Shown here piece after piece: positions 8,394 through 40,430 of a stretch of DNA of 41,779 nucleotides. A program made the position numbers and the translations under genes. A model generated the notes under the pieces. The model searched no databases. It was not told where the DNA came from and saw nothing but the letters and a program-made list of their open reading frames with translations. The stretch lies in the UHGV virus genome UHGV-0015611; one strand, given 5' to 3'. Every line of letters begins with the position of its first letter. Position 1 is the first letter of the stretch. This DNA comes from a virus.

Positions 8394-8435
8394 AAAAACT
8401 TTTCTTATAGGCCCAAATAGGGGCCAATTACGAGC
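8394..8435. repeat. Degenerate copy of the dispersed element, lying between the tube and chaperone genes
   Basis: AAAAACTTTTCTTATAGGCCCAAATAGGGGCCAATTACGAGC. It includes the hairpin GGCCC-aaatag-GGGCC. Confidence 0.4.
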
Positions 8436-8436
8436 T

Positions 8437-8871
8437 TTAATTATTAGTGATGTTAGCTGCCATAATGTTCCATGTAATTGTTTGAGCTTCACTTGCAAAT
8501 GTTTCTGAGGGCATTTGCTGGTGGGAGCATCCTGTTGCTACGTAACTATCACCAGTGGACCTATTTGTTATAGTAATAGTTGTGTCTGCAAATACAGAAG
8601 CTGAAGATTGCTCCAAAATCTTAGCCCAACGTTTAAGCCAAGCATTAAAGTCACTAGACTGTAAAATCTGAAACTCAATAGAGCCGTTCTTAACTGCAAA
8701 CTTGGAAACTACTACAGCTAAGTCAGCAGCTACTGCATGCGAAGTAACATTGCCATCATAGCTAATAGAAACCTGGCCAATGCCTGTTCCGTATGCTGAG
8801 TAGTTTCCAACATTAGGATGGCTGATTGTTACTGTAGTGTCCTCAAAGGAGTAAGTAAATGTTTTAGCCAT
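8437..8871 (-). CDS. Tail tube protein (XkdM-like)
   Basis: 144 aa, immediately after the sheath gene. Confidence 0.5.
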   Translation of the reverse strand: MAKTFTYSFEDTTVTISHPNVGNYSAYGTGIGQVSISYDGNVTSHAVAADLAVVVSKFAVKNGSIEFQILQSSDFNAWLKRWAKILEQSSASVFADTTITITNRSTGDSYVATGCSHQQMPSETFASEAQTITWNIMAANITNN

Positions 8872-8881
8872 TATTGCCCTC

Positions 8882-10009
8882 CTATCTATTAACGAATACT
8901 GTAATTACTACATGCTCAATTGCACCTGAAGAAAGAAGTGCAACATGAATTGGTGGGGAAATTCTTGAAGCTCTCTCTGCTGGGGTCTGATTAGCAACTG
9001 AATCAGCATAAATGTAATAGCCGTTTTCAATGGCGTCCCCTGTTGCAAGGGTATCCACTGGCTCCCCTTTCCAAATACCAGAGGCTATTAAACCAACATT
9101 AGCCATTCTATTGCAAGCTCCTGCAATAGCATTTGTGATAATGTTTACACCAGAATCTGTCTGTGGAATTTTCTTCTGATTCACCAAAGTGTTAACTACA
9201 GTGTTCTGAATCAACGACTTTGCAACATCCATTAAGTAGATTTCATCTACGTGATATCCGCCTCCTGAAACTCCTGGATAAACAAAGTCATAAGAATCAC
9301 TGAAGTTAAGGTAAGCATTGCCATTATATCCAACCAGAATATCAACCTGAGCATCTGTGATATCCTCTGAAGAAACTCCAGCCAAGGTTTTATATGCTAC
9401 TGTATAAGCTGAATTAGCCTGCATTGTGTTAAGTCCAGAAACCAAACCAACCATTGCAATTGCTGTATCAATACCATGATTCTCTGAGACATAAAAGCCA
9501 AACGAACGAGTCCAATTGTTTGTCTGAGCTGTTTTAAGAATGTTAGTAGAGCCGGAAACTAAGCACTGCGGGTCATCTGTTGTATAGAAGAAAATACTTG
9601 GTTTAGCTGAAGCTTCTACCAAAGCTGCTATTGCTGTAATCTCCTGAGTTGTTAATTCAAAAGCATAAGTGAATGCATAAAAGGAACTATTAGCTCTAGC
9701 CCAAGTAAAAGCTGTATCTGGGGTTTTTACTGTAGCATCCGTCGTGCTATACTGTGCAATATCAAGTGAGCCTGGTCTTGAGCTCTGAGCAAAGTACTTA
9801 GTAGCAAGTGCATACTCCGGAGAACTAGTTGTAAAACCATCAGTAATCATTTGAGTTGCATAATTTGAAGCTGTATAAGTTTTAATTTGTCCAGCAAGGG
9901 AAGCAACTGACTTACCAATAATACAGCCTAAATTGAAGTCATTTGAAATAGAAGAAGTAGCAGATACCTGAACTGTTACATCAACTATTTTGTTAAGTGA
10001 AACGCTCAT
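8882..10009 (-). CDS. Contractile tail sheath protein
   Basis: 375 aa, upstream of the tube-chaperone-tape measure trio, in the canonical myovirus order. Confidence 0.5.
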   Translation of the reverse strand: MSVSLNKIVDVTVQVSATSSISNDFNLGCIIGKSVASLAGQIKTYTASNYATQMITDGFTTSSPEYALATKYFAQSSRPGSLDIAQYSTTDATVKTPDTAFTWARANSSFYAFTYAFELTTQEITAIAALVEASAKPSIFFYTTDDPQCLVSGSTNILKTAQTNNWTRSFGFYVSENHGIDTAIAMVGLVSGLNTMQANSAYTVAYKTLAGVSSEDITDAQVDILVGYNGNAYLNFSDSYDFVYPGVSGGGYHVDEIYLMDVAKSLIQNTVVNTLVNQKKIPQTDSGVNIITNAIAGACNRMANVGLIASGIWKGEPVDTLATGDAIENGYYIYADSVANQTPAERASRISPPIHVALLSSGAIEHVVITVFVNR

Positions 10010-10021
10010 GTTGTTTCCTCC

Positions 10022-10558
10022 TTATTGTTGGGTGATAACTTCTAGGTCAAGGCTTTCAATTAAGTCAGTTTCTTGCTCTAATGTAACTGAGTTATAAAAA
10101 CCAACTGTTAATTCAGCTCTTTCCCAAAACCTATTGTTAATTTCTTCATGTATTTTGTTTTCTAAAGTAATATCTGAAGGAATGATAGCCAAATTATTTT
10201 GATGTAACCAATCATTAGTACCAGGAAAGTATAATAGTTCTTTTAAAGTAATTGAGTTAATATCAGCTAATGAGCCATAAAATGTAAATTGAACTGAAAT
10301 CTTCCTCATTGATGTTTGAGTTATTTTCCACTTGTCATCCTCTTTAACATAACCTTCCTGTCTGTTTTTGTACATTTGAACAAAATCTGATTCTTCAGAG
10401 GTGTGAACAAAACAAACATTATCTTTATAGTGTGGCATTGGTTGGCCTTCATCTGCATAAGAAATGAAAACCTTGTTTTTGTTCATTCCTAAGAAATTGA
10501 CTACAAAATTGGAGAATAATTCATCAAATGCATCTAATGAAGTTATCATGTTGGCCAT
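10022..10558 (-). CDS. Head-tail connector/tail completion protein (hypothetical)
   Basis: Position between the capsid and sheath genes. Confidence 0.3.
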   Translation of the reverse strand: MANMITSLDAFDELFSNFVVNFLGMNKNKVFISYADEGQPMPHYKDNVCFVHTSEESDFVQMYKNRQEGYVKEDDKWKITQTSMRKISVQFTFYGSLADINSITLKELLYFPGTNDWLHQNNLAIIPSDITLENKIHEEINNRFWERAELTVGFYNSVTLEQETDLIESLDLEVITQQ

Positions 10559-10560
10559 TG

Positions 10561-11971: not shown

Positions 11972-11997
11972 GTTGGAGCCTCCTTGTTTTTAATAAA

Positions 11998-12435: not shown

Positions 12436-12462
12436 TGTATTCTCCTTTGTTTTATGAAGGCA

Positions 12463-12479
12463 GGGGCCTTTATGGCCCC
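12463..12479. terminator. GC-rich hairpin directly after the major capsid gene stop (GGGGCC-tttat-GGCCCC). It could act as a partial terminator or an mRNA-stabilising hairpin.
   Basis: 6-bp all-GC stem. On the plus strand it is followed by a T-rich tract. The minus-strand context is less U-rich. Confidence 0.35.
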
Positions 12480-12494
12480 TTGCTTACTTATTTA

Positions 12495-14751: not shown

Positions 14752-15345
14752 TTAGCATTCTTTGATTGCTTTTTCTAGTGTTTTAACAAAATTATACTTT
14801 GAAGTAAGTTGTGGCTTACGTTTTTCATCTTTAATCCTAACTGAACTTCCTGCCCTACCTGCCTGAACTAATGCAACATGATTACCTCGAATGTTCTTCT
14901 GGTAAACCTTGCCATCCCGTTCTTCATATTCACATTCATAACCAGCTGAAACTTCCCGTTTGCAACCAGATTGAATCTCGCTAATAACAATAGGGTCTCG
15001 AACCAATATGTCAGCAATTAATTTGTCTGAATCTTCCCCAGTTCCTCTCCTGATGTTTGTGAGCTCCCCTTTGCTATAAACTGACCAATTATCAGCTGTA
15101 ACATCTTCAGAAGGGTGTGTATCTGTAAAAGCTTTACCCTCAAATGAAGCCATTGTCGCTTTATTAAAAACTTCATCTTCTGTTCTAAAAACATTAATAA
15201 TAGAATTGCCAGAAAGACCAAGCTCACTAGAAAGATATTGATAGGTTCCTGTTCTAGCAATAGGAACATTAAAGCAAACTAAGCAACCATTATCAAGCTT
15301 AGTGATGTTGTCTGAAATTTTACTGCCATAATAAGCTCTTGCCAT
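14752..15345 (-). CDS. Putative prohead protease/core protein (DUF2213-like)
   Basis: 197 aa, immediately upstream of the scaffold gene. The family assignment is from memory and is uncertain. Confidence 0.3.
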   Translation of the reverse strand: MARAYYGSKISDNITKLDNGCLVCFNVPIARTGTYQYLSSELGLSGNSIINVFRTEDEVFNKATMASFEGKAFTDTHPSEDVTADNWSVYSKGELTNIRRGTGEDSDKLIADILVRDPIVISEIQSGCKREVSAGYECEYEERDGKVYQKNIRGNHVALVQAGRAGSSVRIKDEKRKPQLTSKYNFVKTLEKAIKEC

Positions 15346-15358
15346 ATTTGTTGCTCCT

Positions 15359-15643
15359 TTAATACTCCAACTCTAAATGATTATGAATGTAGTTCCTTGC
15401 TTGGTTGAGAAGTTCTGTAAGTTCTTTTATTTGTTTATTTTCAAGAGAAGGGTCACTTTTAATTGATTTGTTTAAATCTTCTAGAGCAGCGTTAAATTTG
15501 TTTAGCTGATTAGTCAAATTTTTAGAAGTTGTGATAAGACCTTTGGCCTCCCTTTTGATTTGCTCATATCCTCTACCAGCATCTTTTGCTTTTATAGAGT
15601 TTGGCAAATTTAAACATAAAAGTGAATCATAATATTTATCCAT
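15359..15643 (-). CDS. Hypothetical coiled-coil protein (94 aa)
   Basis: An ORF that follows the promoter at 15668-15696. Confidence 0.3.
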   Translation of the reverse strand: MDKYYDSLLCLNLPNSIKAKDAGRGYEQIKREAKGLITTSKNLTNQLNKFNAALEDLNKSIKSDPSLENKQIKELTELLNQARNYIHNHLELEY

Positions 15644-16098: not shown

Positions 16099-16422
16099 CT
16101 ATTCCCCCGTTCCGTTGTTAACTATGGTTACTGGTTCACTTGGCATTGTAAAAGATAACGAGTCATAAATTGTGCCTTCAGTATATGTAACGTTAATTGC
16201 ATCTAAATCATTTGTGATAGTTGTTTTTACTTGCACATCTGAACCTTTCTTGTAGTAAAGCTTTACCAAATCCCCTGCACTATAAACTGAGTTAACATTA
16301 GTTACAGGCTCTCCTGTAACAACTAAAGGATACTGATTAGGATGGTCAATTTGCCATGCAGGGAAAGGAATTTTGGGTTTAATGTCATCGATATTTCCTA
16401 ATGGGCGTTCTGGTGTTGGCAT
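16099..16422 (-). CDS. Hypothetical protein (107 aa)
   Basis: Has a strong RBS GGAGGAAACC upstream. Confidence 0.3.
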   Translation of the reverse strand: MPTPERPLGNIDDIKPKIPFPAWQIDHPNQYPLVVTGEPVTNVNSVYSAGDLVKLYYKKGSDVQVKTTITNDLDAINVTYTEGTIYDSLSFTMPSEPVTIVNNGTGE

Positions 16423-16448
16423 TATGGGGTTTCCTCCTTCCTTTAATA

Positions 16449-16491
16449 GGTCGTATAAGGGCTTTATTTGGCCGTATGGTAAAAGTTTTTG
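16449..16491. repeat. Copy of the dispersed element in reverse orientation, lying between the head morphogenesis gene and the 107-aa gene
   Basis: Its segment GGCCGTATGGTAAAAGTTTTTG is identical to 40339-40360. Confidence 0.5.
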
Positions 16492-16519
16492 CCTTGGTTA
16501 AGGTTTTATATTAAAGGCC

Positions 16520-17970: not shown

Positions 17971-18561
17971 CTACCAAATCAACGTAATTTCTTTTTTGCC
18001 TAAGTTTAAAGCTTCTTGGTGATTACCTGTAAATATGTCTATTTTATTGCCTTGAATTGCCTTGCCTGTATCAGCAGCTTCATATTGGTTACCTAAATCA
18101 TCTGTTAATATTGTGCCTAAAGGAATAATGTTAGGGTCTACTGCTATTGAGTAATACGGGGTTAATAAAGTTCCTTGGGCCCCATAAGCTATTTCTTCGT
18201 AACCATCTGAGTATTTGCCACAACATTTACTGCAACCACAATAGTATGTTGCTGTAAAGGTTTGTGTGTTTTCTGGTTTTAAGACAGTTTGGTTAACTAA
18301 AGGCTCTATAACAATTTCTGTTGAAGTATAGCTGACTTGTTTATTTAGCTCTTCCTTAGGATTTAACCAATGATAAGTAAAAATACCAAATGCCGTAATT
18401 GCTGCCAAACAGGCCGTTAGGAAAAAGAAAAATCTTGGCTTAAGATAATATACCTTACCTGGGGTTTTCTTGCTTCTAATAGTCAAATAAAGCCCTTTAC
18501 GCTTACTGTAATTTGTAAGCTTAATAGCTTTATTTAATTTTTTTTTAGCTCTTCTACTCAT
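17971..18561 (-). CDS. Membrane-anchored 3D-domain protein (MltA/RlpA/YocH-like lytic transglycosylase fold)
   Basis: Has a basic N-terminus, one transmembrane helix (FFFFLTACLAAITAFGIFTY) and the motif TATYYCGCSKCCGKY. Conserved Asp residues follow (DPNIIPLGTILTDDLGNQYEAADTG ... IDIF). Confidence 0.5.
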   Translation of the reverse strand: MSRRAKKKLNKAIKLTNYSKRKGLYLTIRSKKTPGKVYYLKPRFFFFLTACLAAITAFGIFTYHWLNPKEELNKQVSYTSTEIVIEPLVNQTVLKPENTQTFTATYYCGCSKCCGKYSDGYEEIAYGAQGTLLTPYYSIAVDPNIIPLGTILTDDLGNQYEAADTGKAIQGNKIDIFTGNHQEALNLGKKEITLIW

Positions 18562-21606: not shown

Positions 21607-21625
21607 ATTTACATCCTTTATACAT

Positions 21626-21666
21626 CCCGTAATTGGGCTCTAATTTGACGTATAAGAAAAGTTTTT
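21626..21666. repeat. Copy of the dispersed element in reverse orientation, upstream of the small Cys ORF and terminase genes
   Basis: CCCGTAATTGGGCTCTAATTTGACGTATAAGAAAAGTTTTT. Confidence 0.45.
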
Positions 21667-23130: not shown

Positions 23131-23214
23131 ACTTATTTATAGCCCCTTGGTGGGTGTAATAAACATTTATCTAAGGAGAATCAAATGGAAATTTTCCAAG
23201 GGGCTTCCTTTCAT

Positions 23215-23703
23215 TTAATCAAAATCAAAGTCAAAGTCGTCATCGTCCTCATCATCTTCATCAGTTGCCTTCTTAGCCTTCTTTGATTTCTTGTTAGCCT
23301 TGGACTTCTTGGACTTTTTCTTAGGAGCTTCTTCTACTTCTTCATCCTCGTCCTCTTCGTCCTCTGCCTCTACTTCTTCGTCTTCGTCATCCTCTTCTTC
23401 CTTGGATTCCTTGAATTTCTTAATCTTTCTCTCTGCTCTCTTTGCCTTTCTCGCTTCCTTTTCCTCTTCAGAAATTTCCGGAGCTTCTACGCCAATAGCT
23501 TCTTCAAGAGCCTTGTTGATTTTACGAGCTGTGCAATTAAGCGGAAGTGCCTTGAGGATTTCCATGCCCTCTTCGTTAACAAGAGTAGCATAATGGGTGA
23601 AGAGTGGAAGTCTCTTTGAAATATCCTTGAAATCTTCATAATTATCCTTGTTAACGTTTCTTACAATAACTGCTGCCTCATGAGCTGACCAATTTGTTGC
23701 CAT
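23215..23703 (-). CDS. Highly acidic protein with a Lys-rich linker and a poly-D/E tail that ends DDDDFDFDFD
   Basis: Composition. The N-terminal 80 aa look globular. Confidence 0.4.
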   Translation of the reverse strand: MATNWSAHEAAVIVRNVNKDNYEDFKDISKRLPLFTHYATLVNEEGMEILKALPLNCTARKINKALEEAIGVEAPEISEEEKEARKAKRAERKIKKFKESKEEEDDEDEEVEAEDEEDEDEEVEEAPKKKSKKSKANKKSKKAKKATDEDDEDDDDFDFDFD

Positions 23704-25976: not shown

Positions 25977-26015
25977 AATGTTGTGTTCTCCTTGTGTTTG
26001 GTTTATTACAAATGC

Positions 26016-26044
26016 ATTATATCATACCTTAAAAAGTTTGTAAA
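26016..26044 (-). promoter_or_regulatory. Sigma-A-type promoter at the edge of the origin-like repeat region
   Basis: -10 TGATATAAT at 26016-26021, 17-bp spacer, -35 TTTACA at 26039-26044. Confidence 0.6.
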
Positions 26045-26085
26045 GGCATATTTTGAAAATTTTTAAAAAATATTTTTAACCTAAA

Positions 26086-26398
26086 ATTTAGGGGACATTA
26101 GAGGTTAGAGGTTAGGTTAGAGTTAGGTTAGAGTTAGGGGGCCTTAAGGTTAGTCTAGTTGATATAACAAATAAACAAAGGTATAGGTAACCTTAGACTA
26201 ACCCTAACTAACATAAACAAGTTGATATAACAGATAGAGTAGAGTAGTTAAGTATAAGTAGTATAGAGTATTATATATTATATGAGTATATGAGTATATG
26301 AGGGATATAAGTATTATATATAGTTATACTATATATGATACGTTATCCCGATATATACGATATATACGAATATGGCGTACATATGCGTGCGTAAAGGA
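26086..26398. repeat. Non-coding repeat-dense region, a putative origin of replication
   Basis: It contains (GGTTAGA)n-like tandem repeats at 26090-26140 and the inverted repeat GGTTAGTCTA/TAGACTAACC (26147-26156 and 26193-26202). GTTGATATAACA occurs twice as a direct repeat. ATGAGTAT occurs three times and CGATATATACGA twice. It also has GTA-rich iterons and (TA)n tracts, and no ORF. Confidence 0.45.
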
Positions 26399-27034: not shown

Positions 27035-27046
27035 TTTTAAAAGCTC

Positions 27047-27156
27047 GTAATTGGGCCCTAATAAGCCCGTAGGTAAAAGTTAATGGCCTTTTAATATAAA
27101 ACCTTAGGTTAAAGGAAAACTTTTATTATACGGCCAATTAGAGCCCAATTACGGCA
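27047..27156. repeat. Inverted pair of the dispersed intergenic element, lying between the nuclease and resolvase genes
   Basis: Left copy at 27047-27081. Right copy at 27117-27156 (AAAACTTTTATTATACGGCCAATTAGAGCCCAATTACGGC). Confidence 0.5.
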
Positions 27157-27166
27157 TTTGACATTT

Positions 27167-29204: not shown

Positions 29205-29239
29205 TTTTACCCTCCTTAATGATTTATATTAACCTTTAT

Positions 29240-29278
29240 GAAAACTTTTACCATACGGCCTATTAGAGGCCTTATAGG
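29240..29278. repeat. Single copy of the dispersed element (GAAAACTTTTACCATACGGCCTATTAGAGGCCTTATAGG), lying between the DnaE-like and RecA-like genes
   Basis: It contains the 5-bp hairpin GGCCT-attag-AGGCC. Confidence 0.5.
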
Positions 29279-31998
29279 CGATGATAGGTTTTACTTAACA
29301 TGGCTATATTAAAGGATTCTACTCGCCTTATAAATTCTTTTTTGTTCCATTCCAAAGCCCCTGCCTCCTTAAGTAAGTTAAAGGTTCTATTGTTAAGCAC
29401 CCTGCCAGGAAGCCTTTCTTCAATGTCTGCTGTGTTTAGGTATGGGCCATTCTTTTTCTTTTCTTCTTCTATAGCATAAGCTACTTTTTCTCCTATGCCC
29501 TTAATAGAGGTTAAACCTCTTTGAATACAAATTTCACCATCAATTTCTTTTAAAGAGTATTGAGCTGAGCCATTTACATGGGCTAAAAAGATGATGTTGC
29601 CTGAAGCTACTGCCTCCCTTTCTAGCTGGAATATGTTACTTTCAATAGGACAATAACGAAGTTTACTCCACCAAAATTGGCTAGGATAGTAAAGTTTATA
29701 AAACATCTCCTCAACAGATATTAAAGAGTAACCTAAAGCATGCCCTTTATTAAATGAGTAAACTAGCATAGAGTTAAAAACCTCTTTAGCCTGGGACTTA
29801 GTTAAACCGTTTTTTGTAGCTCCTTCAACAAACTTATTGGAAAGCTCTTGTTTATCCTTCTCAAATTGGATTTTAGCGTCTTCACTTTGGGATTGGCCTC
29901 CAATCATTTTCATTACCTTGTCAGCGTCCCCCCAAGTCATATTACCAATTTCAACACATACCTTTTGAATTTGCTCTTGGTACACTACTGTTCCATATGT
30001 GTCTTTAGTGAAGTTATAATATAGGGATTTCTTAGCTTCTTTTGGGTGCTCCTTATTATAAGCATATAAAGCAGGAACCCCTGTTGATAAAGGGCCAGGT
30101 CTGTTAAGGGCATTAGCAGCTACTATGTCCTCAAAACAACTACAATTAATTTCCTTTAGAAGCTTTTGAACTGCTGGTTTGTCAAACTGAAATACTCCAG
30201 TAGTTTCTTGATTTCCAAAAGCTTTCATAATCTTTTTATCATTTGTAGCTTTTTCATAATTAACTGTTACTCCTGTTGTTTTTCTTAAGGCCCCAAGCTC
30301 CTCCATTGTCATTAACCCTAAAATATCAAACTTAATAACATTGATGTTTTCCAAATCATTGAGGTCATAATTGGTGTAAAGTTGGCCTGACTTACTATCA
30401 ACTCTAAGTGAAGTGTAATCTAAAATGTTTCCCCCAGTAATAGCTACTCCAGCAGCATGAGTTCCAATGAACCGCATCTTCTTATAAAGCTTAGTGAAGT
30501 GTGTGCATATATTATCATATAAAGCGTTGTACTTTTTAGTTAACTGGCTGCTTAGGAAAGTTTCAGTTAACAAGTTACCTTCTTCATCTAAATACTTGTT
30601 AATGTGCTCCTTTATTTTAGCAATAACTTCTTTATGTTCTAAGGCGTCCTCATCATCCTTTTTAGTTCCTAGCCCACAAACTTTAGCTAAGTCGTTAACC
30701 AAGTTATCAACCTTGTACAAACCATAGGAAGCTATTCTTGCTGTGTGCCCTTTATGCCTATTTATGATATAGTCAATGACCTCCCCACGACGGGACTTCT
30801 CAAAATCTAAATCTATGTCAGGCATTTTCTTTTTGTCTAACCTTAAAAACCTCCTAAAGTCTAAGCCATAATATAAGCTGTCAACTTCAGTTATGCCTAA
30901 GGCATAGGCTACTTCGCAATTGCAACAAGAGCCTCTTCCTGGCCCTACTGCTATGCCATGGGATTTAGCCCAATTAACATAATCATAAACCATGAGAAAG
31001 TAATCGTCAAATCCTAAAGACTCTATGACATGAAGCTCCTCTTTAACCCTGGCTTTATACTCAGGAGTCCATTTGCCCTTAGCTTTAAGTCCTCTAACGA
31101 CAAGCTCCCTAACTGTTACTCCTAACTGCTCTTGCATATTAGGGAGGGTTTGCTCTAGGTCTTTAAAAATATCTTCCTCTATTTTATTAAACAGCTCCTT
31201 GTGATTGCTCATATAAGAAATGCCAAGCTCCTTATCCTTATGCATTAAAATAAAGCGTTTAAGCATTTCTTTAGGGGTTGGCATGTAACGCTCTTTATAG
31301 GTTGATGTTATATGCTCTAAGTCATGTCCTGCCATTTGGTGCATTTTAAGGTATGTGTCAAAGTCTAGCTTATTTCCAAAGTGGGAGTCTGATGTAAGTA
31401 ATACTTTTACCTTGTGCTCCCTAGCTAACCCCATTAATTTGTCATTAACAGATTCTTGTAAACCTTCTTCAGATATGCTATAAGGTTGAACCTCTATGTA
31501 AAAGTCATCGCCATAAATGCTCTTAAGCTTTCTAATAAAGCCATTAGCAGCTTCTAATTTCCCTTCCTTTATAGCTTGGGATAAATAACCAGCAATACAA
31601 GCTGTTGTACATATAACCCCTTCACTATACTTTTCTAATAAATCCAAAGTCCAAATTGGATTATAATACTTTTGTTTTTCCCCTTCATACTGGAGGGTGT
31701 TTATGTTAGAGTAACCCTTAGCATTTTTAGCAAATAAGCATAAGTGATAACCTCTATGTTTTTCCTTATATTTTGGGAGCATGTAGCCTTCTACTCCTAA
31801 AACAGGTTTAATTCCTACTGACTTACAAGCCATATAGTGTTGAACTAAACCATTAGTGTTGCCATGATTGCTAATGCCTAAAGCAGGATAGCCATACTCC
31901 TTAGCTAACTTGGCTAACTCCAAGGCTTTGCCAAAGCCATCAAAGCTACTATACTCATCATGCCTATGAAGATCAAACCAATAATTTAATTTGCTCAT
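29272..31998 (-). CDS. DNA polymerase III alpha-like replicative polymerase (DnaE/PolC family, with an N-terminal PHP domain)
   Basis: The PHP motif is HLHRHDEYSSFDGFG. The 908-aa protein follows the DnaE architecture. No proofreading-exonuclease domain is evident. Confidence 0.65.
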   Translation of the reverse strand: MSKLNYWFDLHRHDEYSSFDGFGKALELAKLAKEYGYPALGISNHGNTNGLVQHYMACKSVGIKPVLGVEGYMLPKYKEKHRGYHLCLFAKNAKGYSNINTLQYEGEKQKYYNPIWTLDLLEKYSEGVICTTACIAGYLSQAIKEGKLEAANGFIRKLKSIYGDDFYIEVQPYSISEEGLQESVNDKLMGLAREHKVKVLLTSDSHFGNKLDFDTYLKMHQMAGHDLEHITSTYKERYMPTPKEMLKRFILMHKDKELGISYMSNHKELFNKIEEDIFKDLEQTLPNMQEQLGVTVRELVVRGLKAKGKWTPEYKARVKEELHVIESLGFDDYFLMVYDYVNWAKSHGIAVGPGRGSCCNCEVAYALGITEVDSLYYGLDFRRFLRLDKKKMPDIDLDFEKSRRGEVIDYIINRHKGHTARIASYGLYKVDNLVNDLAKVCGLGTKKDDEDALEHKEVIAKIKEHINKYLDEEGNLLTETFLSSQLTKKYNALYDNICTHFTKLYKKMRFIGTHAAGVAITGGNILDYTSLRVDSKSGQLYTNYDLNDLENINVIKFDILGLMTMEELGALRKTTGVTVNYEKATNDKKIMKAFGNQETTGVFQFDKPAVQKLLKEINCSCFEDIVAANALNRPGPLSTGVPALYAYNKEHPKEAKKSLYYNFTKDTYGTVVYQEQIQKVCVEIGNMTWGDADKVMKMIGGQSQSEDAKIQFEKDKQELSNKFVEGATKNGLTKSQAKEVFNSMLVYSFNKGHALGYSLISVEEMFYKLYYPSQFWWSKLRYCPIESNIFQLEREAVASGNIIFLAHVNGSAQYSLKEIDGEICIQRGLTSIKGIGEKVAYAIEEEKKKNGPYLNTADIEERLPGRVLNNRTFNLLKEAGALEWNKKEFIRRVESFNIAMLSKTYHRL

Positions 31999-32071
31999 AT
32001 TTACCTCTTGCAGAAATTTTAAAATTAGGCTCCTTTAATATTAAGGTAATATAAAAACTTAACCGGCCTAT

Positions 32072-32110
32072 AAACTTTTCTTATACGGCCATTTAGGAGC
32101 CTTATACGAC
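32072..32110. repeat. Single copy of the dispersed element, lying between the ThyA-like and DnaE-like genes
   Basis: AAACTTTTCTTATACGGCCATTTAGGAGCCTTATACGACC. Confidence 0.45.
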
Positions 32111-32113
32111 CTA

Positions 32114-32809
32114 TTAAAATACTCCCTGTATATCCTTATTATAAACATGAAGGCTAAAGATAGTATGGGTAAATGTGCCCACTGGGTACTTAGAGTAATA
32201 GGCGACATATTCCAAAAGCTTAATGGCCAAATAAACATCATTTACAAAGTGAGTAGCAAAGTCAGATGAGCGCATTACATAATGCATATTTAACTTACCA
32301 TCCCTAACCTGAAAGTTATAACCAAGTGAGCAAGGGACCCGAGAAATCCCTCCTATATTGTCCATGTCCTTAGTAACATCCCAGATACTCAACCAAAGCT
32401 GGCGTGAGTTAGGGTCATTCTCAATTGCTTTAATGATTTTCCAAACCTGATTATTACCCATTAACCTTTCATTATAAGTATAGGAGAATTTACCATCATG
32501 AAGGAACTCATCCCAGACCTCTTCCCTTGCTTTGTAGGCCTGGCCTGGGTTAACTGTGCCTGAAAGGTCAATTCTTTCAATGAACTCTTCATCAGCCCAA
32601 GGGAGGGTTACATTAAGCTGGTTAGCAATTTCTTTTGAGCTTGGACTAATTAACATGTAAGAGTAGTTCTGAAGCTCCTTAGTTTCATAATCAGGGTTTC
32701 CTTCAATTACTTTGTCTTGCATTGTTTTAGGTTTAATTAAGATTCCCATTTCAGCAAGGTCCCTTTTAATTTCCCCGTACATCTCTTTAGGGTTTAAATA
32801 GTATCTCAT
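32114..32809 (-). CDS. Divergent thymidylate-synthase-family enzyme (ThyA-like), a candidate dUMP hydroxymethylase or methylase
   Basis: Its C-terminal half aligns with ThyA. NDPNSRQLWLSIWD matches NDPDSRRIIVSAWN. VPCSLGYNFQV matches APCHAFFQFYV, with the catalytic Cys kept. DGKLNMHYVMRSSD matches DGKLSCQLYQRSCD, and the FVN Asn is kept. It is only 231 aa and the N-terminal TS motifs are missing. Confidence 0.55.
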   Translation of the reverse strand: MRYYLNPKEMYGEIKRDLAEMGILIKPKTMQDKVIEGNPDYETKELQNYSYMLISPSSKEIANQLNVTLPWADEEFIERIDLSGTVNPGQAYKAREEVWDEFLHDGKFSYTYNERLMGNNQVWKIIKAIENDPNSRQLWLSIWDVTKDMDNIGGISRVPCSLGYNFQVRDGKLNMHYVMRSSDFATHFVNDVYLAIKLLEYVAYYSKYPVGTFTHTIFSLHVYNKDIQGVF

Positions 32810-32840
32810 TTCGCTTCCTCCTTAAAAATATTATATAAGC

Positions 32841-32869
32841 ATTATACCACAATTTACTTAACCTGTAAA
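32841..32869 (-). promoter_or_regulatory. Sigma-A-type promoter that drives the ThyA-like/DnaE/RecA operon
   Basis: -10 TGgTATAAT at 32841-32846, 17-bp spacer, -35 TTTACA at 32864-32869. Confidence 0.6.
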
Positions 32870-33606
32870 TAGTCATCTATAGTTTTATTTGAGAGTACTA
32901 AAGGGTGTAACATAACAGCTCCGTTATAAACAGCTTTCATCCGGGAAACAGATTTATATGAAGGGTTCTTAAGGCCTTCTAATACCTCTTCTTTGAACTT
33001 AATAGCATAATCATGCACTCTATTGCCTTTGGTTAATTGGTACCATGAAAAGCAAAAGATACTTCTAAATGTTGCTGAAGCCCTAACATTTATATATGAA
33101 GAGGGTAAAACAAAAGTTATCGTTTTTATTTCTGGGGTAAACTCTTTAAACCACATAGACAACAAGGCCAAATCTGCAGCAAACCTACGATTGATTTCTG
33201 TTGCTCTGTAATACACAAATGCTTTAGTCCAAGCCTTTTTATTAGCCCTTGTTAAAACTATGGAAAGTAAACAACTTCCATTAAGCCCCGATGTTCCTTT
33301 CTTAGGCTTATTAGGGTTAAAGTTGAAAGTTATTGCAGTTCCCGTAGTGTTTTTAAGTTTATCAGAAAAACCCTTGTACTCATCTTTTAAAACATAAGTA
33401 TTGATTAGCATAGTCATTTTAGCAGGGGTGTAACCTAGCTTACTTAAATCAAAATTAAATGAGCTGTTTCTTGTAGTAACAATTAAGGGGCAAAGTGTTG
33501 GTCTTTGCCCCGTTAAACCTATTGAGTATTTATTTACATTTAAGAAAAGCTCTTTATTTAACTCTATGAACATACTTGTAAAATCTTCATACTCAAAACT
33601 GAACAT
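32854..33606 (-). CDS. Hypothetical protein (250 aa) embedded in the nucleotide-metabolism module
   Basis: No recognisable motif. It lies between the ThyA-like and MazG-like genes. Confidence 0.35.
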   Translation of the reverse strand: MFSFEYEDFTSMFIELNKELFLNVNKYSIGLTGQRPTLCPLIVTTRNSSFNFDLSKLGYTPAKMTMLINTYVLKDEYKGFSDKLKNTTGTAITFNFNPNKPKKGTSGLNGSCLLSIVLTRANKKAWTKAFVYYRATEINRRFAADLALLSMWFKEFTPEIKTITFVLPSSYINVRASATFRSIFCFSWYQLTKGNRVHDYAIKFKEEVLEGLKNPSYKSVSRMKAVYNGAVMLHPLVLSNKTIDDYLQVK

Positions 33607-34251
33607 TTAATAATTACTCCTTTGTCTAAACTTGTTAACTTGTGACTTTTTTAAATAAGTGTCTACTACTTCATTGCAGTCATCAAATGCGTAAAACAAA
33701 ATGCAAAAATAAGCTTTCCAGGTTTCTAACAGTCTTTCATAAAATACCTCTTTATCAGTAAGCATTTGGGATTGTTTCCAAGGCTTGTTTTTAAGGGAAT
33801 TACAAGTCATTCCTAATTTTTGAATAAACCGGGAAACAAAAGTCTCCAAGTTGTATCTGTATTTAAGTTTGGGGATGTTAAACAAAAATTCTAAAGCATT
33901 AGGGCTTGGCAAATACTTTGCAATAACTGTAGGGGTAAATCCAGCTAGAATGCTAAACTCTGTTAGAAAATGCAGGCCATCCACAAGTTCCTCTTTGAAG
34001 TGCTCTCTATCTTTATCTACATAAAGGGAGTCTAATGCCTCCCCCAATTCTTCAGTAATTCTCCAAGCAAAATCCTTGAGTCTTGCCTGACCTTTTTTAT
34101 CATCTAAGTTGACTGGGCAATCTGGGGTTTGAAGTAAACCTGATTTAGCCTCAATATTATGGTAGTTATCCATAAGCTCCTTCTGTCTATCGAATATAGC
34201 CTGTAAAGGGTCTTTGGTGACCTCTTCACTAATTGCGTCTTTAATGTTCAT
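33607..34251 (-). CDS. All-alpha NTP pyrophosphohydrolase (MazG/dimeric dUTPase/dCTPase family)
   Basis: The acidic EExxE/ExxD motifs RITEELGEALDSL and EELVDGLHFLTEF are typical of MazG-like dNTPases. Confidence 0.5.
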   Translation of the reverse strand: MNIKDAISEEVTKDPLQAIFDRQKELMDNYHNIEAKSGLLQTPDCPVNLDDKKGQARLKDFAWRITEELGEALDSLYVDKDREHFKEELVDGLHFLTEFSILAGFTPTVIAKYLPSPNALEFLFNIPKLKYRYNLETFVSRFIQKLGMTCNSLKNKPWKQSQMLTDKEVFYERLLETWKAYFCILFYAFDDCNEVVDTYLKKSQVNKFRQRSNY

Positions 34252-34796
34252 TGATGTCCCTCCTTAAATAAGTAATTTACTTGGTCTAAAATTATATTAG
34301 CAAGGTCTTCCCAATTATCTTCCATAAAATTGTAATTAAAAACTCTGGAGGTGATTTTATGAATGTAAGGAAAAGCTTTATAACCTTCGATGAGTTGTTT
34401 AGCATTTTCCTTTATGCCTTTCATTTGCTCCCTTTCGCCCCATTCTAAGATTTTATCCTCCCCAGGGTTACAATGAATAAAGAATGTAATTTGATTAAGC
34501 ATGTTACTAACATATGTTGCATGCGATGAGAAGTTGTTACGGTTTCTTAAAATGTTACCACAAACTTCTTCTTCAATAATAGGAAATCTATCGAATATCT
34601 GAATGTCGTTGTCAGTAAATTTAACATCTGTAATATGTTTATCCATAAACCTTACTTGCTCCGAAAGTGAAGCAGGCCCCAAACTTTTAATTGGTGTTGC
34701 TGGCTGGCCATTTTCCCAGAGATACTGAACCAAGTTGTTTGTTAGTGTAGTCTTACCTGAGTTGTCGCATCCGTAAACTACTATGTTAATCTTCAT
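34248..34796 (-). CDS. P-loop deoxynucleotide monophosphate kinase (dNMP/thymidylate-kinase-like)
   Basis: Walker A motif VVYGCDNSGKTTL. It also has FDRF, a DRY-like motif. 182 aa. Confidence 0.5.
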   Translation of the reverse strand: MKINIVVYGCDNSGKTTLTNNLVQYLWENGQPATPIKSLGPASLSEQVRFMDKHITDVKFTDNDIQIFDRFPIIEEEVCGNILRNRNNFSSHATYVSNMLNQITFFIHCNPGEDKILEWGEREQMKGIKENAKQLIEGYKAFPYIHKITSRVFNYNFMEDNWEDLANIILDQVNYLFKEGHQ

Positions 34797-35647: not shown

Positions 35648-36605
35648 TGAGTTTTTCAAATTGTCCTTTAATTTCTTTTAACTCTTGTGTGTTTTTGTTT
35701 ATGTCCCCAAAATCTTTTACTTCCTTAGGATACTTTAACCTGTAAACTTTTATATCTTCTGTTTTACATATTTGTTTTAAGTATGTGTATCCCTTGTTTC
35801 CTGCCTCATCATTATCTAAGGCGCATATTATAGTTGTTATGTGTTTACGTTTTATTTTGTTTAGTTGCTTTTTAGAGATTTTCCAGCCTAGTAAAGCTGC
35901 TACGTTTTTAAAACCTAATTGCAAAGCTTTTAAACAGTCTAGGTAACCTTCTACTAAAATAATTGGTTCCTCTTTGTTATATTTGCCTGGTAGAGTTAAC
36001 TGCCTTCTAAAACCTGTGTTATATAAGTACTTTCTTTTACTTTCTATTTCTGGATTAAATGTTCTTAAAACGTATCCCCTAAACACCTCATTTTCAACTA
36101 AAGGAAATATTATAGGATAGTTTGGGTTTAAAGAAGGTTTGGATCCAATGTCAGTAAGTAGTTTGTTAGAAAACCCCCTAGACTTCATGTACTGCCTACA
36201 TAATAAAGTTTCTTCGTGTATAGCTTGATTTTCCCTTGGCTTATACCAATTAGGGTCAGGTAAGCTTTCATAATATGCTCTTGCTTGAGTTACTGCTTGT
36301 TTTTGTGAAAGCCTTTTAGTTGTTATTACTTGAGCGTCTAAGGCTTTAAATGGGGTTTTAAGGCCCCTTTGGGTGATTTCTTGTAATTTAATGTTAGCTT
36401 GTAGTTTATTAAGGCCTGGCTCAAAATATGTAATTAACTCTAAAGGCCCTCCATGGGCTTCGCACCCATAACAATGAAAGTAGCCCTTAACAACATTGAT
36501 TTGTAAACTTGGGTTTTTGTCCTTGTGAAATGGGCAAATAACTTTATATACTGGAGAGTCTAAGAATAAACCATAATGCTCCAGGACTTTAACAAACTCA
36601 TTCAT
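35625..36605 (-). CDS. DNA primase (DnaG-like, with a CHC2 zinc finger and a Toprim domain)
   Basis: Zinc finger CPFHKDKNPSLQIN...FHCYGCEAHG. Toprim segments EGYLDCLKA and ALDNDEAG. Confidence 0.65.
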   Translation of the reverse strand: MNEFVKVLEHYGLFLDSPVYKVICPFHKDKNPSLQINVVKGYFHCYGCEAHGGPLELITYFEPGLNKLQANIKLQEITQRGLKTPFKALDAQVITTKRLSQKQAVTQARAYYESLPDPNWYKPRENQAIHEETLLCRQYMKSRGFSNKLLTDIGSKPSLNPNYPIIFPLVENEVFRGYVLRTFNPEIESKRKYLYNTGFRRQLTLPGKYNKEEPIILVEGYLDCLKALQLGFKNVAALLGWKISKKQLNKIKRKHITTIICALDNDEAGNKGYTYLKQICKTEDIKVYRLKYPKEVKDFGDINKNTQELKEIKGQFEKLIYKSKQK

Positions 36606-37327: not shown

Positions 37328-37361
37328 TATGAAAACCTCCTTTCATTAAACTACATAAAAT

Positions 37362-37391
37362 ACAGGACGGTTTAGGGTCCTGTATGTATCA
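37362..37391 (-). terminator. Intrinsic-terminator-like hairpin placed just after the stop codon of a 9-codon leader ORF
   Basis: Stem ACAGGAC/GTCCTGT (7 bp, at 37362-37368 and 37377-37383) with an 8-nt loop. On the minus strand it is followed by ATTTTATGTAGTTT. The leader ORF MLITYLHLP spans 37389-37418 and has RBS AAGGAGGA. Confidence 0.4.
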
Positions 37392-37545: not shown

Positions 37546-37574
37546 ATTATATCACATAAAGTTTAATTTGTAAA
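37546..37574 (-). promoter_or_regulatory. Sigma-A-type promoter P1 (-10 TGATATAAT), in tandem with P2
   Basis: -10 at 37546-37551, 17-bp spacer, -35 TTTACA at 37569-37574. Confidence 0.6.
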
Positions 37575-37600
37575 TGGGTAAATTAAAAATATTTTTTAAA

Positions 37601-37702
37601 GGGCCTAATTTGACGTATAAGGCATTTTATTTTGGTAAAGGCATAATATCATTAAGGAAGGATTTTCTTTTCTTATACGGCTTATTAAGGCCCTTATACG
37701 GC
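37601..37702. repeat. Inverted pair of the dispersed intergenic element, lying upstream of promoters P1 and P2
   Basis: Left copy at 37601-37640 (GGGCCTAATTTGACGTATAAGGCATTTT...). Right copy at 37664-37702 (TTTTCTTTTCTTATACGGCTTATTAAGGCCCTTATACGGC). Confidence 0.5.
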
Positions 37703-37710
37703 ATATTAAG

Positions 37711-37896
37711 TTATTCCTTGTTACACTCATTATTAATTATGCGAGTCTTATCTGGCTTAGTGAAAAAGAATGTCATAATTGAGCCATATGTTGTGCAATA
37801 AAGGGCCAAAATTTCTTTAGGCGGATTTATTGGTAAGAACATACAAGCTACAAGAACTAAAGTAAGTATGATGGTAACAAAGCTTCTTACATTCAT
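37711..37896 (-). CDS. Putative holin (61 aa, two transmembrane segments)
   Basis: Hydrophobic stretches FVTIILTLVLVACMFL and ILALYCTTYGSIMTFFF. It is downstream of the endolysin gene. Confidence 0.4.
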   Translation of the reverse strand: MNVRSFVTIILTLVLVACMFLPINPPKEILALYCTTYGSIMTFFFTKPDKTRIINNECNKE

Positions 37897-37897
37897 T

Positions 37898-38844: not shown

Positions 38845-38901
38845 CCCTTTCTAAAATAATAGGGCAGGTTTGGGCCTGCCCAAAAGAGGATAGAAAAATG
38901 T

Positions 38902-39132
38902 TTACAGGTCTTTTACAACCTGATTAAAATCTTCCCAGTTAAATGTATCTGCCCCTTCAAATGGGTAAACAATGGTTTCCCCTGCATTGTGCTGTTTTGC
39001 ATTGGCTAAGAGCATATCGAAAAGTACGTTAAGGTCATACTCACTACCATCTTCCTTTTTGTTAAGTTTGCTGATTTCAACAAGAACTGGGAAATAATGG
39101 TGAATAGCCTCCAAACGGTTTTTAAGAAACAT
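38902..39132 (-). CDS. Hypothetical protein (76 aa, start MFLKNR)
   Basis: RBS AAGGAGG lies 7 nt before the ATG at 39132. The track ORF extends to 39201. Confidence 0.3.
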   Translation of the reverse strand: MFLKNRLEAIHHYFPVLVEISKLNKKEDGSEYDLNVLFDMLLANAKQHNAGETIVYPFEGADTFNWEDFNQVVKDL

Positions 39133-39151
39133 AATGCAACCTCCTTGCTTT

Positions 39152-40297
39152 TTATTTCTCCAAAATTTGAACTTTCTTTTCTTTCTGGATCCAATCAACA
39201 TAGCAGTTAAGAGCCTCAGCTATAAAACGAATGGGAACCAATGTTCTATTGTTTTTGTCAATGTAAGGGGCTACATCCAAGTAAGTTTTTAAGCCATTTA
39301 CGTAAGCTATGTCACTACCTGTTGTTAGAGTTATTCTATTAGCCCCTTTATCGATAATAACAGTAATTGATTTGTTGTCGTTCATTCTCCAATAGACTTT
39401 AGCTCCAAGGGCCTCTGAGATAACCCTAATAGGAACCATGATTCTCCCTTGATTGTTAACTGGCTTTGTGTCCATTGTGTAGCTCTCCCCATCAATGAAG
39501 TACTCATTTGTAGTAGTTTTCATTGTAATGTACTTTTTGTTCCAATCGGGTAACACTGGCATTCCCCAACCGGTGTATCTATCATGGCCAGGACCTTCTA
39601 AATCAGTACAAATCATTTTAAGGTATTGATGTGTTTCCTGTTGGCTCATATGACCATATCTTTGCATTAACATGGAGATTTGTCCTGCCAATGCTGGAGT
39701 AGAAGCTGATGTCCCCGAGTACCATAGAACCAATTGGGAAAAGTCAATGTCCTCCCCTACTGAAGAGTAGTTAGCTCTTTCTATAACTTCAGGCTGGCCC
39801 TTATATTTAATAAGGTTTAAAGCCCCTACCACATGGGAGATTTCTGTAGGGAATTTAGCATTAGTAGTATCCTTGTCTTTATCCCTTGCCTCCCCTTCGT
39901 TACCAGCGCATTGGCAAATAACAAGATTGTACTTTTTAGCAAGGTATCTAATGTACTCCTGCCATTCTTTGCAAGGATTATATCCTACTTTAGAGGAAGT
40001 TATAATATCAATTTTATACTTTTTGATAAACTCCTCCATGCCTAAATCCCTTTTTGTTAAAGGGTCTGAAATTGAAAGGGAAAGGATTTTGTCCCCTTCT
40101 GTTGTAAGGTTTATGCTTCCCCAGTAAACAAAAGCATGTGGATTTACATCTAGCACTATTTGTCCGGTGCAGGCTCCGTGATTAGCATTCTCCTCGATGT
40201 TCCAGACGTTTACTGGATTTATGTTGTAGAAGTGCTGCCTCCATTGGGTAACTCCCATTAAAGGAAGTTGTTTGTTAAGGTCTTGTTGTTTACTCAT
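39152..40297 (-). CDS. Subtilisin-like serine peptidase (S8 family) with two copper-amine-oxidase-N-terminal-like cell-wall-binding repeats
   Basis: Ser motif GTSASTPALAGQ. Oxyanion-hole motif AGNEG. His motif HGACTGQ. The C-terminus carries the duplicated repeats IMVPIRVISEALGAKVYW and TLVPIRFIAEALNCYVDW. Confidence 0.5.
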   Translation of the reverse strand: MSKQQDLNKQLPLMGVTQWRQHFYNINPVNVWNIEENANHGACTGQIVLDVNPHAFVYWGSINLTTEGDKILSLSISDPLTKRDLGMEEFIKKYKIDIITSSKVGYNPCKEWQEYIRYLAKKYNLVICQCAGNEGEARDKDKDTTNAKFPTEISHVVGALNLIKYKGQPEVIERANYSSVGEDIDFSQLVLWYSGTSASTPALAGQISMLMQRYGHMSQQETHQYLKMICTDLEGPGHDRYTGWGMPVLPDWNKKYITMKTTTNEYFIDGESYTMDTKPVNNQGRIMVPIRVISEALGAKVYWRMNDNKSITVIIDKGANRITLTTGSDIAYVNGLKTYLDVAPYIDKNNRTLVPIRFIAEALNCYVDWIQKEKKVQILEK

Positions 40298-40321
40298 AAT
40301 GGCCCTCCTATATAAATGTGA

Positions 40322-40430
40322 TGTATAAGGTCCCTAACAGGCCGTATGGTAAAAGTTTTTGACTTAGTAGTGTATTTTATAAGGAGTGATATTTTCTTTC
40401 CTTATACGGCCTGTTAGGGACCTTATAGGA
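40322..40430. repeat. Inverted pair of the dispersed ~40-bp intergenic element. The 24-bp perfect inverted repeats at 40324-40347 and 40404-40427 flank an 56-bp AT-rich core.
   Basis: TATAAGGTCCCTAACAGGCCGTAT and ATACGGCCTGTTAGGGACCTTATA are exact reverse complements. Confidence 0.6.

Follow-up and report, generated by a model that had tools for sequence, protein, structure and literature searches.

Dispersed intergenic cassettes with helically phased arms in a phage genome: a possible DNA-level site array at operon-internal junctions

UHGV virus genome UHGV-0015611, whose 41,779 nucleotides are referred to here as the window, has a G+C content of 36% and carries all of its genes on the minus strand. 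Eight of its same-strand gene gaps hold a family of repeats, here called cassettes, with a tally of 10 strong arms, one degenerate arm, and two partial arms (13 in total). Our reading, which is a tentative one, is that the cassette may act at the DNA level, as an array of sites through which a lineage-specific protein would control events at junctions inside operons. In related phages the design persists while the arm sequence is replaced per lineage, which is the signature of a cis-element that co-evolves with a trans-acting factor. For an uncultivated phage, the clue that bears most directly on the layout of gene expression or replication usually comes from repeated intergenic motifs, and dispersed intergenic regulatory repeats are a known kind of feature in phages. 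We know of no description of the combination found here (three phased boxes per arm, inverted arms around a flippable core, and fixed junctions with genome-wide arm replacement), nor, to our knowledge, has the same design with unrelated sequence been described across a large uncultivated gut phage family.

Number and anatomy of the arms

The original prediction, made from the letters of the window, had listed 11 coordinates, each of which holds a copy by repeat finding and direct reading. Its count of at least 13 copies agrees with the tally given above, and so does their placement between genes, as every copy lies in one of the eight minus-strand intergenic gaps and look-alikes within genes are weak. 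An arm profile searched with nhmmer returned 10 copies at E = 1e-11 to 9e-9 and nothing comparable elsewhere in the window. The 19-nt core AAACTTTTMYYATAYGGCC, allowing ≤3 mismatches, matched seven times compared with 0.26 expected, and 0 of 100 shuffles reached seven; in this shuffled-sequence control, which the prediction had named as a way to refute it, chance did not account for the copy number. The degenerate eleventh copy at about 37598-37640 is register-shifted. The only in-gene look-alikes, both weak, are located at 36336-36370 (in the primase gene) and at 18388-18427. The latter, inside gene 17971-18561, is part of a 42-nt stretch that is 79% complementary to the 27.1k arm and its flank (nhmmer E = 0.6), and it is probably a chance match.

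The arms are 40-45 bp long and consist of about three direct sub-repeats of 10-11 bp, with self-match peaks at offsets 10-12 (z = 5.9-7.4), which bears out the ~10.5-bp sub-repeats seen earlier. Whole units measure 105-125 bp and have no coding capacity. Read along the transcript, a full unit follows the stop codon after 0-13 nt with a reversed arm, an AT-rich center, and a forward arm, after which 19-30 nt lead to the ribosome-binding site (RBS). Two regularities are absent from the original prediction, namely that reversed arms always stand after a stop codon and forward arms always before an RBS, and that the center often contains the motif TTAATATAAAACCTTA (three exact copies and two with two mismatches, five out of five in cassette gaps). 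Two full arms are present at the loci named 40.4k, 37.6k, and 27.1k, where the three predicted facing pairs were indeed found, a full and a partial arm at 32.0k and 8.4k, and a solo arm at 29.2k, 21.6k, and 16.4k. Repeat finding also recovered the predicted perfect 24-bp inverted repeat (40324-40347 / 40404-40427). The 5-bp GGCCT/AGGCC hairpin, which had been proposed for the element in general, did not hold up as a general feature and is strong in the 29.2k copy only.

Occupancy, arm replacement, and conservation in related phages

A total of 77 IMG/VR relatives, all at ≤69% identity, were retrieved via DnaE, and closer relatives via DnaE and MuF homologs. Three related metagenomic phages were each joined from two partial loci (L090+L219, L218+L217, and L091+L216). 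L090+L219 and L218+L217, with 84-89% nucleotide identity to the window, have window-type arms at 8/8 junctions. In L091+L216 (85% DnaE identity), 8/8 junctions are likewise occupied, and every gap holds arms of a different consensus, GTATAAGG-sYC...TAAGG(CCC)TTTTAT, whose only elements in common with the window type are a TATAAGG box and the ~21-nt box spacing; solo arms remain solo there, but are of the L091 type. Occupancy is identical at all eight junctions in these four genomes spanning 70-89% nucleotide identity. In the search of related genomes that had been suggested as a check, close relatives thus have 8/8 junctions occupied. Among the 77 IMG/VR relatives, sigma-A promoters are common to all and the arms are absent. 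Exact-pattern scans of IMG/VR and of 185,579 species genomes gave, among the matches listed, only single chance-level ones and therefore no evidence for a host-borne family.

At three of the five comparable junctions (32.0k, 29.2k, and 16.4k), the center motif TAATATAAAMCC is kept in L091/L216 but stands in the opposite orientation to that of the window. Since it is retained in either orientation, the center speaks against a directional promoter and against a sequence-specific loop in the RNA, and agrees with a DNA site that works either way round.

Identity by site class, taken between the window and its ~86%-identical relatives, was 0.888 for arms (n=457 sites), 0.917 for centers, 0.896 for sigma-A promoters, and 0.898 for other intergenic DNA, compared with 0.933, 0.962, and 0.711 at codon positions 1, 2, and 3. 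With values of 0.888-0.917 against 0.711 at codon position 3, the cassettes evolve far slower than near-neutral sites, and the copies are, judging from these identities, under purifying selection. Hardly any position of the 37.6k cassette varies across three genomes. Where orthologous arms differ, a block has often been switched to a variant seen in paralogs (ACC<->CTT, GGCCTGTTAGGGGCC -> GACTAAATAGAGCCC), and the left 40.4k arm has been overwritten to match its partner arm; such block switches indicate gene conversion and concerted evolution among the cassette copies.

In distant relatives, the Cas4/RuvC or ThyA/DnaE gaps contain unrelated GC-rich inverted repeats of 10-33 bp with an AT-rich spacer of ~20-56 nt, examples being L072 (33 bp, perfect), L038, L037, L040, L041, L085, L087, and L092. 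L041 (54% DnaE identity) has a dispersed family of its own, the arms of which are three 10-nt direct repeats (GAGGCATCCA / GAGGTCATCT / GAGGTCATCG), arranged inverted or direct around a TATA-rich core of ~50 nt, with a direct pair at 15345/15413. Moreover, own-type arm-like sequences are located in the primase coding region, in the linker between Zn-ribbon and Toprim, at 36336-36370 in the window, 5649-5680 in L091, and 5586-5621 in L041 (nhmmer E = 3e-4 to 7e-4, with 81% identity to an intergenic arm in L041), and they arise in two independent lineages, L091/window and L041. By analogy, these sequences may recall origins embedded in replication genes, or in-frame palindromic insertions.

A canonical terminator in one relative (L029 19086-19135, AGGCCTTAGA...TCTAAGGCC-TTTTTATTTTAT) is followed by a center-like ATTATATTAAAG, and the same arrangement stands at homologous positions in L025, L028, L031, L032, and L034. 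It resembles the L091-type arm and the 8.4k cassette of the window read on the plus strand, a likeness of sequence that hints at a shared ancestry of cassettes and family terminators.

A phased-site array on DNA and its competitors

In the reading that we favor, the cassette would act in cis on double-stranded DNA. Each arm would be an array of about three binding sites set one helical turn apart, with a box in the window phage of roughly TTATACGGCC / TTAGAGCC, or CGTATAAG when the opposite strand is read, spaced at 21 bp, and the reader of these sites would be an oligomeric, sequence-specific protein that varies from one phage lineage to another. One or two arms would flank the conserved AT-rich core, which should be easily bent or melted, and the resulting nucleoprotein complex would be located between the stop codon and the next RBS, within long sigma-A-driven operons. 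Most likely, the complex would tune the transcription that passes into, or starts toward, the DnaE, RecA, RuvC, terminase, head, and tail genes; at two-armed cassettes, the transcript would also bear a long hairpin with a possible added effect at the RNA level. What the sequences themselves document is the cassettes' anatomy, helical phasing, and placement, their conservation and concerted evolution among relatives, and their independence from orientation; protein binding to the arms and the transcriptional output are the parts of this scheme that we infer.

Of the four roles that the original prediction had offered, binding sites for a DNA-binding protein fit best, given the phasing, the flexible arms, the either-orientation center, and the concerted arm change; a binding protein did not turn up. 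An arm can stand alone (29.2k, 21.6k, and 16.4k) or with a second arm in inverted or direct (in L041) arrangement, and arm sequence changes in concert throughout a genome, the L091/L216 consensus replacing the window type everywhere. The 10-11-bp periodicity recurs in three unrelated arm sets (z up to 7.4 in the window, about 3.8 in L091-type arms, and 8.2 at offset 10 in L041), but these z-scores derive from related copies and are hence inflated. Further points also weigh against a protein-bound array. The family is absent from L092, L213, and L214 (73-78% DnaE identity), and other intergenic DNA is about equally conserved (0.898), so that the arms are not alone in being constrained. Compensatory changes affect a few stem pairs (32.0k and 8.4k), and the perfect inverted repeats of 24 bp in the window and 33 bp in L072, which a protein-site model does not require, suggest hairpin or cruciform formation, or recent conversion. 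Finally, the small open reading frames (ORFs) of the window match no DNA-binding family in Pfam or PHROGs, no cognate protein was found among them, and a phyletic table gave no protein specific to cassette-bearing genomes.

The candidates for a clade-specific DNA-binding protein that the phyletic table did yield were membrane-like or low-complexity only and were set aside. A conserved gene upstream of primase has four close homologs only and a coiled-coil look; no family search bore out the guess that it encodes a Gam- or Gp157-like accessory protein. Across all window ORFs, Pfam and PHROGs gave no sigma factor, RNA polymerase, transposase, RAYT, integrase, or tyrosine recombinase. Identification of the trans-acting factor would uncover a layer of regulation or replication in gut Clostridia phages, a widespread group, could explain why cassette junctions are hot spots for gene acquisition, and would render the question experimentally tractable, since cultured relatives exist (Agathobaculum phages AB434P2 and P3).

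The closest regulatory counterparts are repressor/operator repeats. The stoperators of mycobacteriophage L5 are dispersed intergenic sites that lower the expression of downstream genes and, like the D29 Gp36 sites and the cassettes, are short repeated intergenic sites in long operons. Gp36 of phage D29 is reported to bind direct repeats rich in GC and to repress the genes downstream (PMC12266134). Unlike the L5 and D29 sites, the unit in the window is a 40-45-bp array of three phased boxes, often duplicated in inverted form around an AT-rich core; the cassettes stand in both orientations, and no repressor or MerR-like protein was found in the window.

Other readings are not mutually exclusive with an array of DNA sites, as a two-armed cassette that is bound as DNA still puts a long hairpin into the mRNA. 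The best of them, which we nevertheless regard as unlikely, locates the function in that RNA: hairpins in the polycistronic mRNA would be RNase III sites, 3' exonuclease barriers, or leaky attenuators that set the expression of neighboring genes. All copies do lie between co-directional genes, and folding of the sense RNA against shuffled controls gave z = -7.5 at 40.4k and z = -5.9 at 27.1k, the two loci at which double-stranded RNA of about 20 bp or longer would be present in the sense transcript. Both measures are marginal at 8.4k, 37.6k, and 32.0k. Stems of at least 24 bp suffice for RNase III. Three genomes retain the long-range stems of 32.0k and 8.4k, with one or two changes of a compensatory or wobble type (GGCTCC/GGAGCC vs GGCCCC/GGGGCC in the 32.0k pair of L090, and AGCTC/GAGCT vs GGCTC/GAGCC at 8.4k), and distant relatives retain the unrelated 10-33-bp inverted repeats around an AT-rich spacer at Cas4/RuvC and ThyA/DnaE. 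On the other hand, three of the eight loci are solo arms without a significant fold (z = -0.5 to -1.6) or such double-stranded RNA, yet they are conserved, and the direct 10-11-nt sub-repeats as well as a loop motif conserved in both orientations are left unexplained. Comparison of sense and antisense folding revealed no systematic sense advantage, and at 27.1k in L090 the substitutions favor the antisense strand (-45.3 vs -36.6 kcal/mol). Covariance models of Rfam 15 at gathering score had no match in the window and found only tRNAs in seven relatives.

Intrinsic terminators can be set aside, as the terminator scan flags 0 cassettes and their loops measure 31-56 nt vs the canonical 3-8 nt; T-runs follow some copies only (8.4k, 27.1k, 32.0k, and 37.6k) and are not conserved in L216. 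The cassettes share with the T7-type RNase III hairpins, to which the prediction had likened them, a placement as structured repeats between co-transcribed genes, and two window loci would give perfect or near-perfect stems of at least 20 bp; they differ by their solo arms, phased sub-repeats, conserved loop motif, and lack of a sense folding bias. Under that proposal, RNase III processing may occur only where two arms pair (40.4k and 27.1k), and it does not account for solo arms, sub-repeats, or the conserved center.

Less probable still is a selfish palindromic repeat (of a foldback, MITE [miniature inverted-repeat transposable element], REP, or Correia-like kind) that would have spread to permissive intergenic sites by its own copying or by gene conversion without benefit to the phage. 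Its hallmarks are partly there, in that the units are small, non-coding, and multi-copy, with terminal inverted arms of sub-repeats (at three loci, partial at two more, eight loci overall). The family is also confined to one subclade, blocks are swapped between copies, arm-like copies sit in the primase linker, and orthologous junctions can be "empty" (in L092 and L214, 12 bp separate DnaE from RecA, and the ThyA and DnaE genes of L214 overlap). MITEs are known from viral genomes (PMC11602168). Full copies, however, show no target-site duplication, their flanks being different (GGGTTC / ATCACA at 40.4k and AAATGC / AGCTTT at 27.1k), and the sole hint of one is an ambiguous TAAGG repeat at DnaE/RecA that overlaps the RBS. 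The window ORFs encode no transposase domain, RAYT, or integrase, no multi-copy genome appeared among the matches listed from the 185,579 species genomes, and no insertion polymorphism was seen, with occupancy fixed at 8/8 loci in four genomes and divergence well under the codon-position-3 rate. The MITE-like role of the original prediction is therefore retained as a structural resemblance, against which stand the missing target-site duplication, transposase, and presence/absence polymorphism, and the purifying selection.

REP/BIME, Correia, ERIC, and MITE elements are described as small non-coding intergenic palindromes that are co-transcribed and undergo concerted evolution (PMC2817692, PMC3116915, PMC11602168). 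The cassettes are likewise non-coding intergenic imperfect palindromes, and some of the published elements have a central protein-binding motif; the cassettes differ in being phage-borne, in lacking target-site duplication, transposase, and RAYT, and in their fixed occupancy and purifying selection. Membership in REP/BIME, whose units are imperfect palindromes of 20-40 nt, was rejected, as a single arm has no significant fold, the GGCC...GGCC mini-hairpin is strong in no copy but 29.2k, and no RAYT is encoded. Integron attC sites were rejected as well: no tyrosine recombinase was found in the window, the outer ends, where an attC site would have RYYYAAC / GTTRRRY core sites, read CGTATAAGG / CCTTATACG, and AAAAC/GTTTT-like runs occupy the inner ends.

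It is also conceivable, although we give it slightly less credence than the selfish repeat, that the DnaE-encoding myovirus-like phages related to Agathobaculum and Clostridium phages share a family-wide system, in which iteron cassettes particular to a lineage (three phased boxes, then a TATA-rich core, then three boxes in inverted orientation) would be replication/primosome-loading or recombination sites that co-evolve with a DNA-binding protein.

Doubtful to a somewhat greater degree are origin-like or primosome-loading sites in the window itself, where iteron arrays beside an AT-rich unwinding element would be bound by a replication protein and provide several initiation or priming sites. 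The classic design of an origin, as in lambda ori and plasmid origins, places iterons beside an AT-rich core, and the cassettes do contain at least three helically phased direct repeats beside an AT-rich region. Such a function would be orientation-independent, and the own-type arm-likes in the primase gene (window/L091 and, independently, L041) recall lambda ori, which lies inside gene O; plasmid R1 parC has 11-bp repeats flanking a promoter. Iteron origins and centromeres thus resemble the cassettes in their direct repeats of about a helical turn beside an AT-rich or promoter core, in a lineage-linked repeat sequence, and in an in-gene copy within a replication gene. CGTATA occurs 12 times in the window, nine of them in arms and two in repeat-rich non-coding DNA at 26354-26368, but because this link to a putative origin is based on a 9-bp tandem repeat it is too weak to rely on. 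Eight dispersed origins in 42 kb, rather than one or two, would be unusual, as would their position between stop codon and RBS, and three of the cassettes belong to the structural gene module. A separate origin-like region (25977-26398) is conserved in relatives without arms, and neither an initiator nor a ParR-like protein was recognized among the window ORFs with Pfam and PHROGs.

No more convincing are recombination linkers, by which short sequences shared at junctions would help co-infecting phages to exchange or insert gene cassettes: copies show conversion among themselves and cassette junctions are insertion hot spots throughout the family, but such linkers would be an evolutionary by-product rather than a molecular function and would leave the phased sub-repeats and the conserved core unexplained. 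In relatives, genes are inserted at ThyA/DnaE, DnaE/RecA, Cas4/RuvC, zf/TerL, and MuF/next gene (32.0k, 29.2k, 27.1k, 21.6k, and 16.4k). Family members have between 2 and 5786 bp from DnaE to RecA and between -38 and 3403 bp from Cas4 to RuvC; five extra genes follow directly after the 21.6k-type cassette in L216, and two follow the 16.4k cassette in the window and L217. The T4-type PeSLs offer a published precedent for junction motifs linked to gene-cassette indels (PMC4122927). Both are repeated intergenic motifs at hyperplastic junctions, whereas a PeSL as described there is defined by an early promoter plus a terminator stem-loop, and the cassettes have neither a sigma-A promoter nor a canonical terminator. 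Membership was rejected, with cassettes and sigma-A promoters in different gaps except at 37.6k.

The remaining suggestion, promoters for another sigma factor or polymerase, found no support, as neither a phage sigma factor nor a phage RNA polymerase was detected in the window and the core flips its orientation between relatives. Sigma-A/sigma-70 promoters, with a 16-18-bp spacer between their -35 and -10 hexamers, were rejected, with chance-level 9/12 matches only (32044-32016 and 8373-8345) and a core motif inverted between relatives. This is in line with the earlier statement that the sigma-A promoter family does not explain the elements: that family is separate, and the cassettes hold no sigma-A arrangement. 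ECF-type (AAC...CGT) and T4-late-type (TATAAATA) promoters were likewise rejected, as their spacings do not fit by eye and the window yielded no phage sigma factor. Genome-wide, ATATAAAW shows no enrichment (14 matches vs 13.7 expected), and -10-like hexamers are weakly enriched in the loops of the family-wide inverted repeats (18/84 vs 12.7 ± 3.1). Halovirus HF2 carries an intergenic repeat family with AT-rich motifs whose sequence and position are conserved within the virus genus and which are demonstrated promoters (PMC8707807). The two are alike in their intergenic placement, AT-rich motifs, and conserved position, whereas HF2 is an archaeal virus with promoters and the cassette core flips between relatives without a sigma-A -35/-10 arrangement.

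The eight loci and their gene neighborhood

At 40.4k, the plus-strand arm 40391..40436 (AAACTTTT...ATACGG; nhmmer E = 4.9e-9) forms half of the perfect 24-bp inverted repeat and is, on the mRNA, the reversed arm 6 nt past the stop codon of gene 40434-40658. Its AT-rich center (40361..40390) is the loop of the hairpin with z = -7.5, and the minus-strand forward arm (40316..40360; E = 1.7e-10) lies directly upstream of the RBS of an S8-peptidase/Cu_amine_oxidN1 gene (39152-40297, Pfam). At 37.6k, an arm past the stop codon of gene 37711-37896 (37662..37707, plus strand; E = 1.2e-9) is joined by a center that is nearly invariant across three genomes (37641..37661) to the degenerate register-shifted forward arm (37598..37640, minus strand), after which come a T-rich run and two sigma-A promoters (37574 and 37489).

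At 32.0k, an arm past the stop codon of the ThyA-like gene (32070..32114, plus strand; E = 4.2e-11) precedes a center (32037..32069) with its core motif at 32046-32061 on the strand opposite to transcription, and a partial forward arm upstream of DnaE (32021..32036, minus strand; AAAATTAGGCTCC) pairs with GGCTCC of the full arm. The solo arm of 29.2k (29241..29282, plus strand; E = 5.3e-11) overlaps the DnaE stop codon, and its center (29214..29240; TTAATATAAATCATTA) abuts the RecA RBS. At 27.1k, the arm past the stop codon of the Cas4-like exonuclease gene (27116..27159, plus strand; E = 1.4e-11) and the forward arm upstream of the RuvC-like gene (27040..27084, minus strand; E = 8.6e-9), together giving the hairpin with z = -5.9, enclose a center (27085..27115) of which 31/31 positions are identical in three genomes and the core motif (27091-27106) is retained in L091 and L092.

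In the structural part, the solo forward arm of 21.6k (21622..21666, minus strand; E = 5.1e-10) is located upstream of a small ORF and of the gene for the large terminase and has its L091-type counterpart at L216 2963-3005. The solo forward arm of 16.4k (16446..16489, minus strand; E = 3.4e-10) lies upstream of gene 16099-16422, and the stop codon of the MuF-like head gene is immediately followed by the center (16490..16519; core motif 16499-16514). At 8.4k, the arm past the stop codon of the tail-tube gene 8437-8871 (8394..8438, plus strand; E = 1.8e-10) is followed by a center (8357..8393; core motif 8372-8387) with 62/64 positions identical to L217 and by a partial forward arm (8330..8356, minus strand; AAAGCTCTAATTTTAATTTTAAGGCCC), whose pairing partner is the outer part of the full arm.

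Pfam and PHROGs assign to replication and repair primase, SSB-like, thymidylate-kinase-like, MazG-like, ThyA-like, DnaE, RecA, Cas4-like exonuclease, RuvC-like resolvase, and RNase H genes, and to packaging and structure TerS, TerL, portal, MuF-like head protein, major capsid, sheath-like, tube, and baseplate genes; Pfam upholds the previously noted gene order ThyA-like / DnaE / RecA. INPHARED (megablast and blastn) gave no match among known phage DNA. Because the nearest cultured relatives by DnaE identity are Agathobaculum phages AB434P2 and P3 (55%) and Clostridium phages CS266P1-4 (48%), the host is probably a gut Clostridia-class bacterium.

The separate family of 11 near-consensus sigma-A promoters (TTTACA-17-TGnTATAAT, also given as cccaTTTACAAA-N14-TGnTATAAT) lies on the minus strand at 40732, 37574, 37489, 35647, 32869, 28288, 26044, 25111, 18630, 15696, and 3858. 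These promoters are found in all relatives examined and are scattered across early and structural genes alike, with no obvious basis for temporal control. Large intergenic gaps have either a sigma-A promoter or a cassette, and both in one gap only (37.6k).

After the RuvC-like gene, a 422-bp non-coding region (25977-26398) is rich in short repeats, with CGTATATAT twice and CGTATCATAT, ACTCATAT three times, TGTTATATCAAC twice, and runs of CTAACCT / CTAACTCTAACC; it probably serves as the replication origin or as some other cis-acting site. L092 has a comparable region behind its RuvC gene (15155-15447), and sequence of this kind is also seen at the ends of L090 and L091. The cluster at 32114-34796 comprises ThyA-like, a 250-amino-acid protein without assigned function, MazG/dUTPase_2-like, and thymidylate-kinase-like genes, and in Agathobaculum phage AB434P2 the homolog of the ThyA-like protein is annotated as dUMP hydroxymethyltransferase. 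The gene content suggests that phage DNA may undergo an hmdU-type thymidine replacement or hypermodification.

Over the whole window, some palindromes are strongly avoided (GATC 11 vs 135 expected, CGCG 0 vs 43, and GCGC 5 vs 43), which suggests restriction avoidance or CpG depletion, and GGCC and AGCT are over-represented; a restriction-site reading of GGCC was rejected, since GGCC is not depleted (103 vs 43 expected). Gene 23215-23703 encodes a 162-amino-acid protein with a strongly acidic and lysine-rich low-complexity tail, and analogous charged-repeat genes are present in L013, L014, L080, and L092. Intergenic hairpins of unrelated sequence are located at 23131-23214, 12436-12494, 38862-38881, and 37360-37385; among them are a 10-bp GC-rich stem with a 45-nt loop (AGCCCCTTGG...CCAAGGGGCT), one hairpin after the major capsid gene, and two terminator-like stem-loops.

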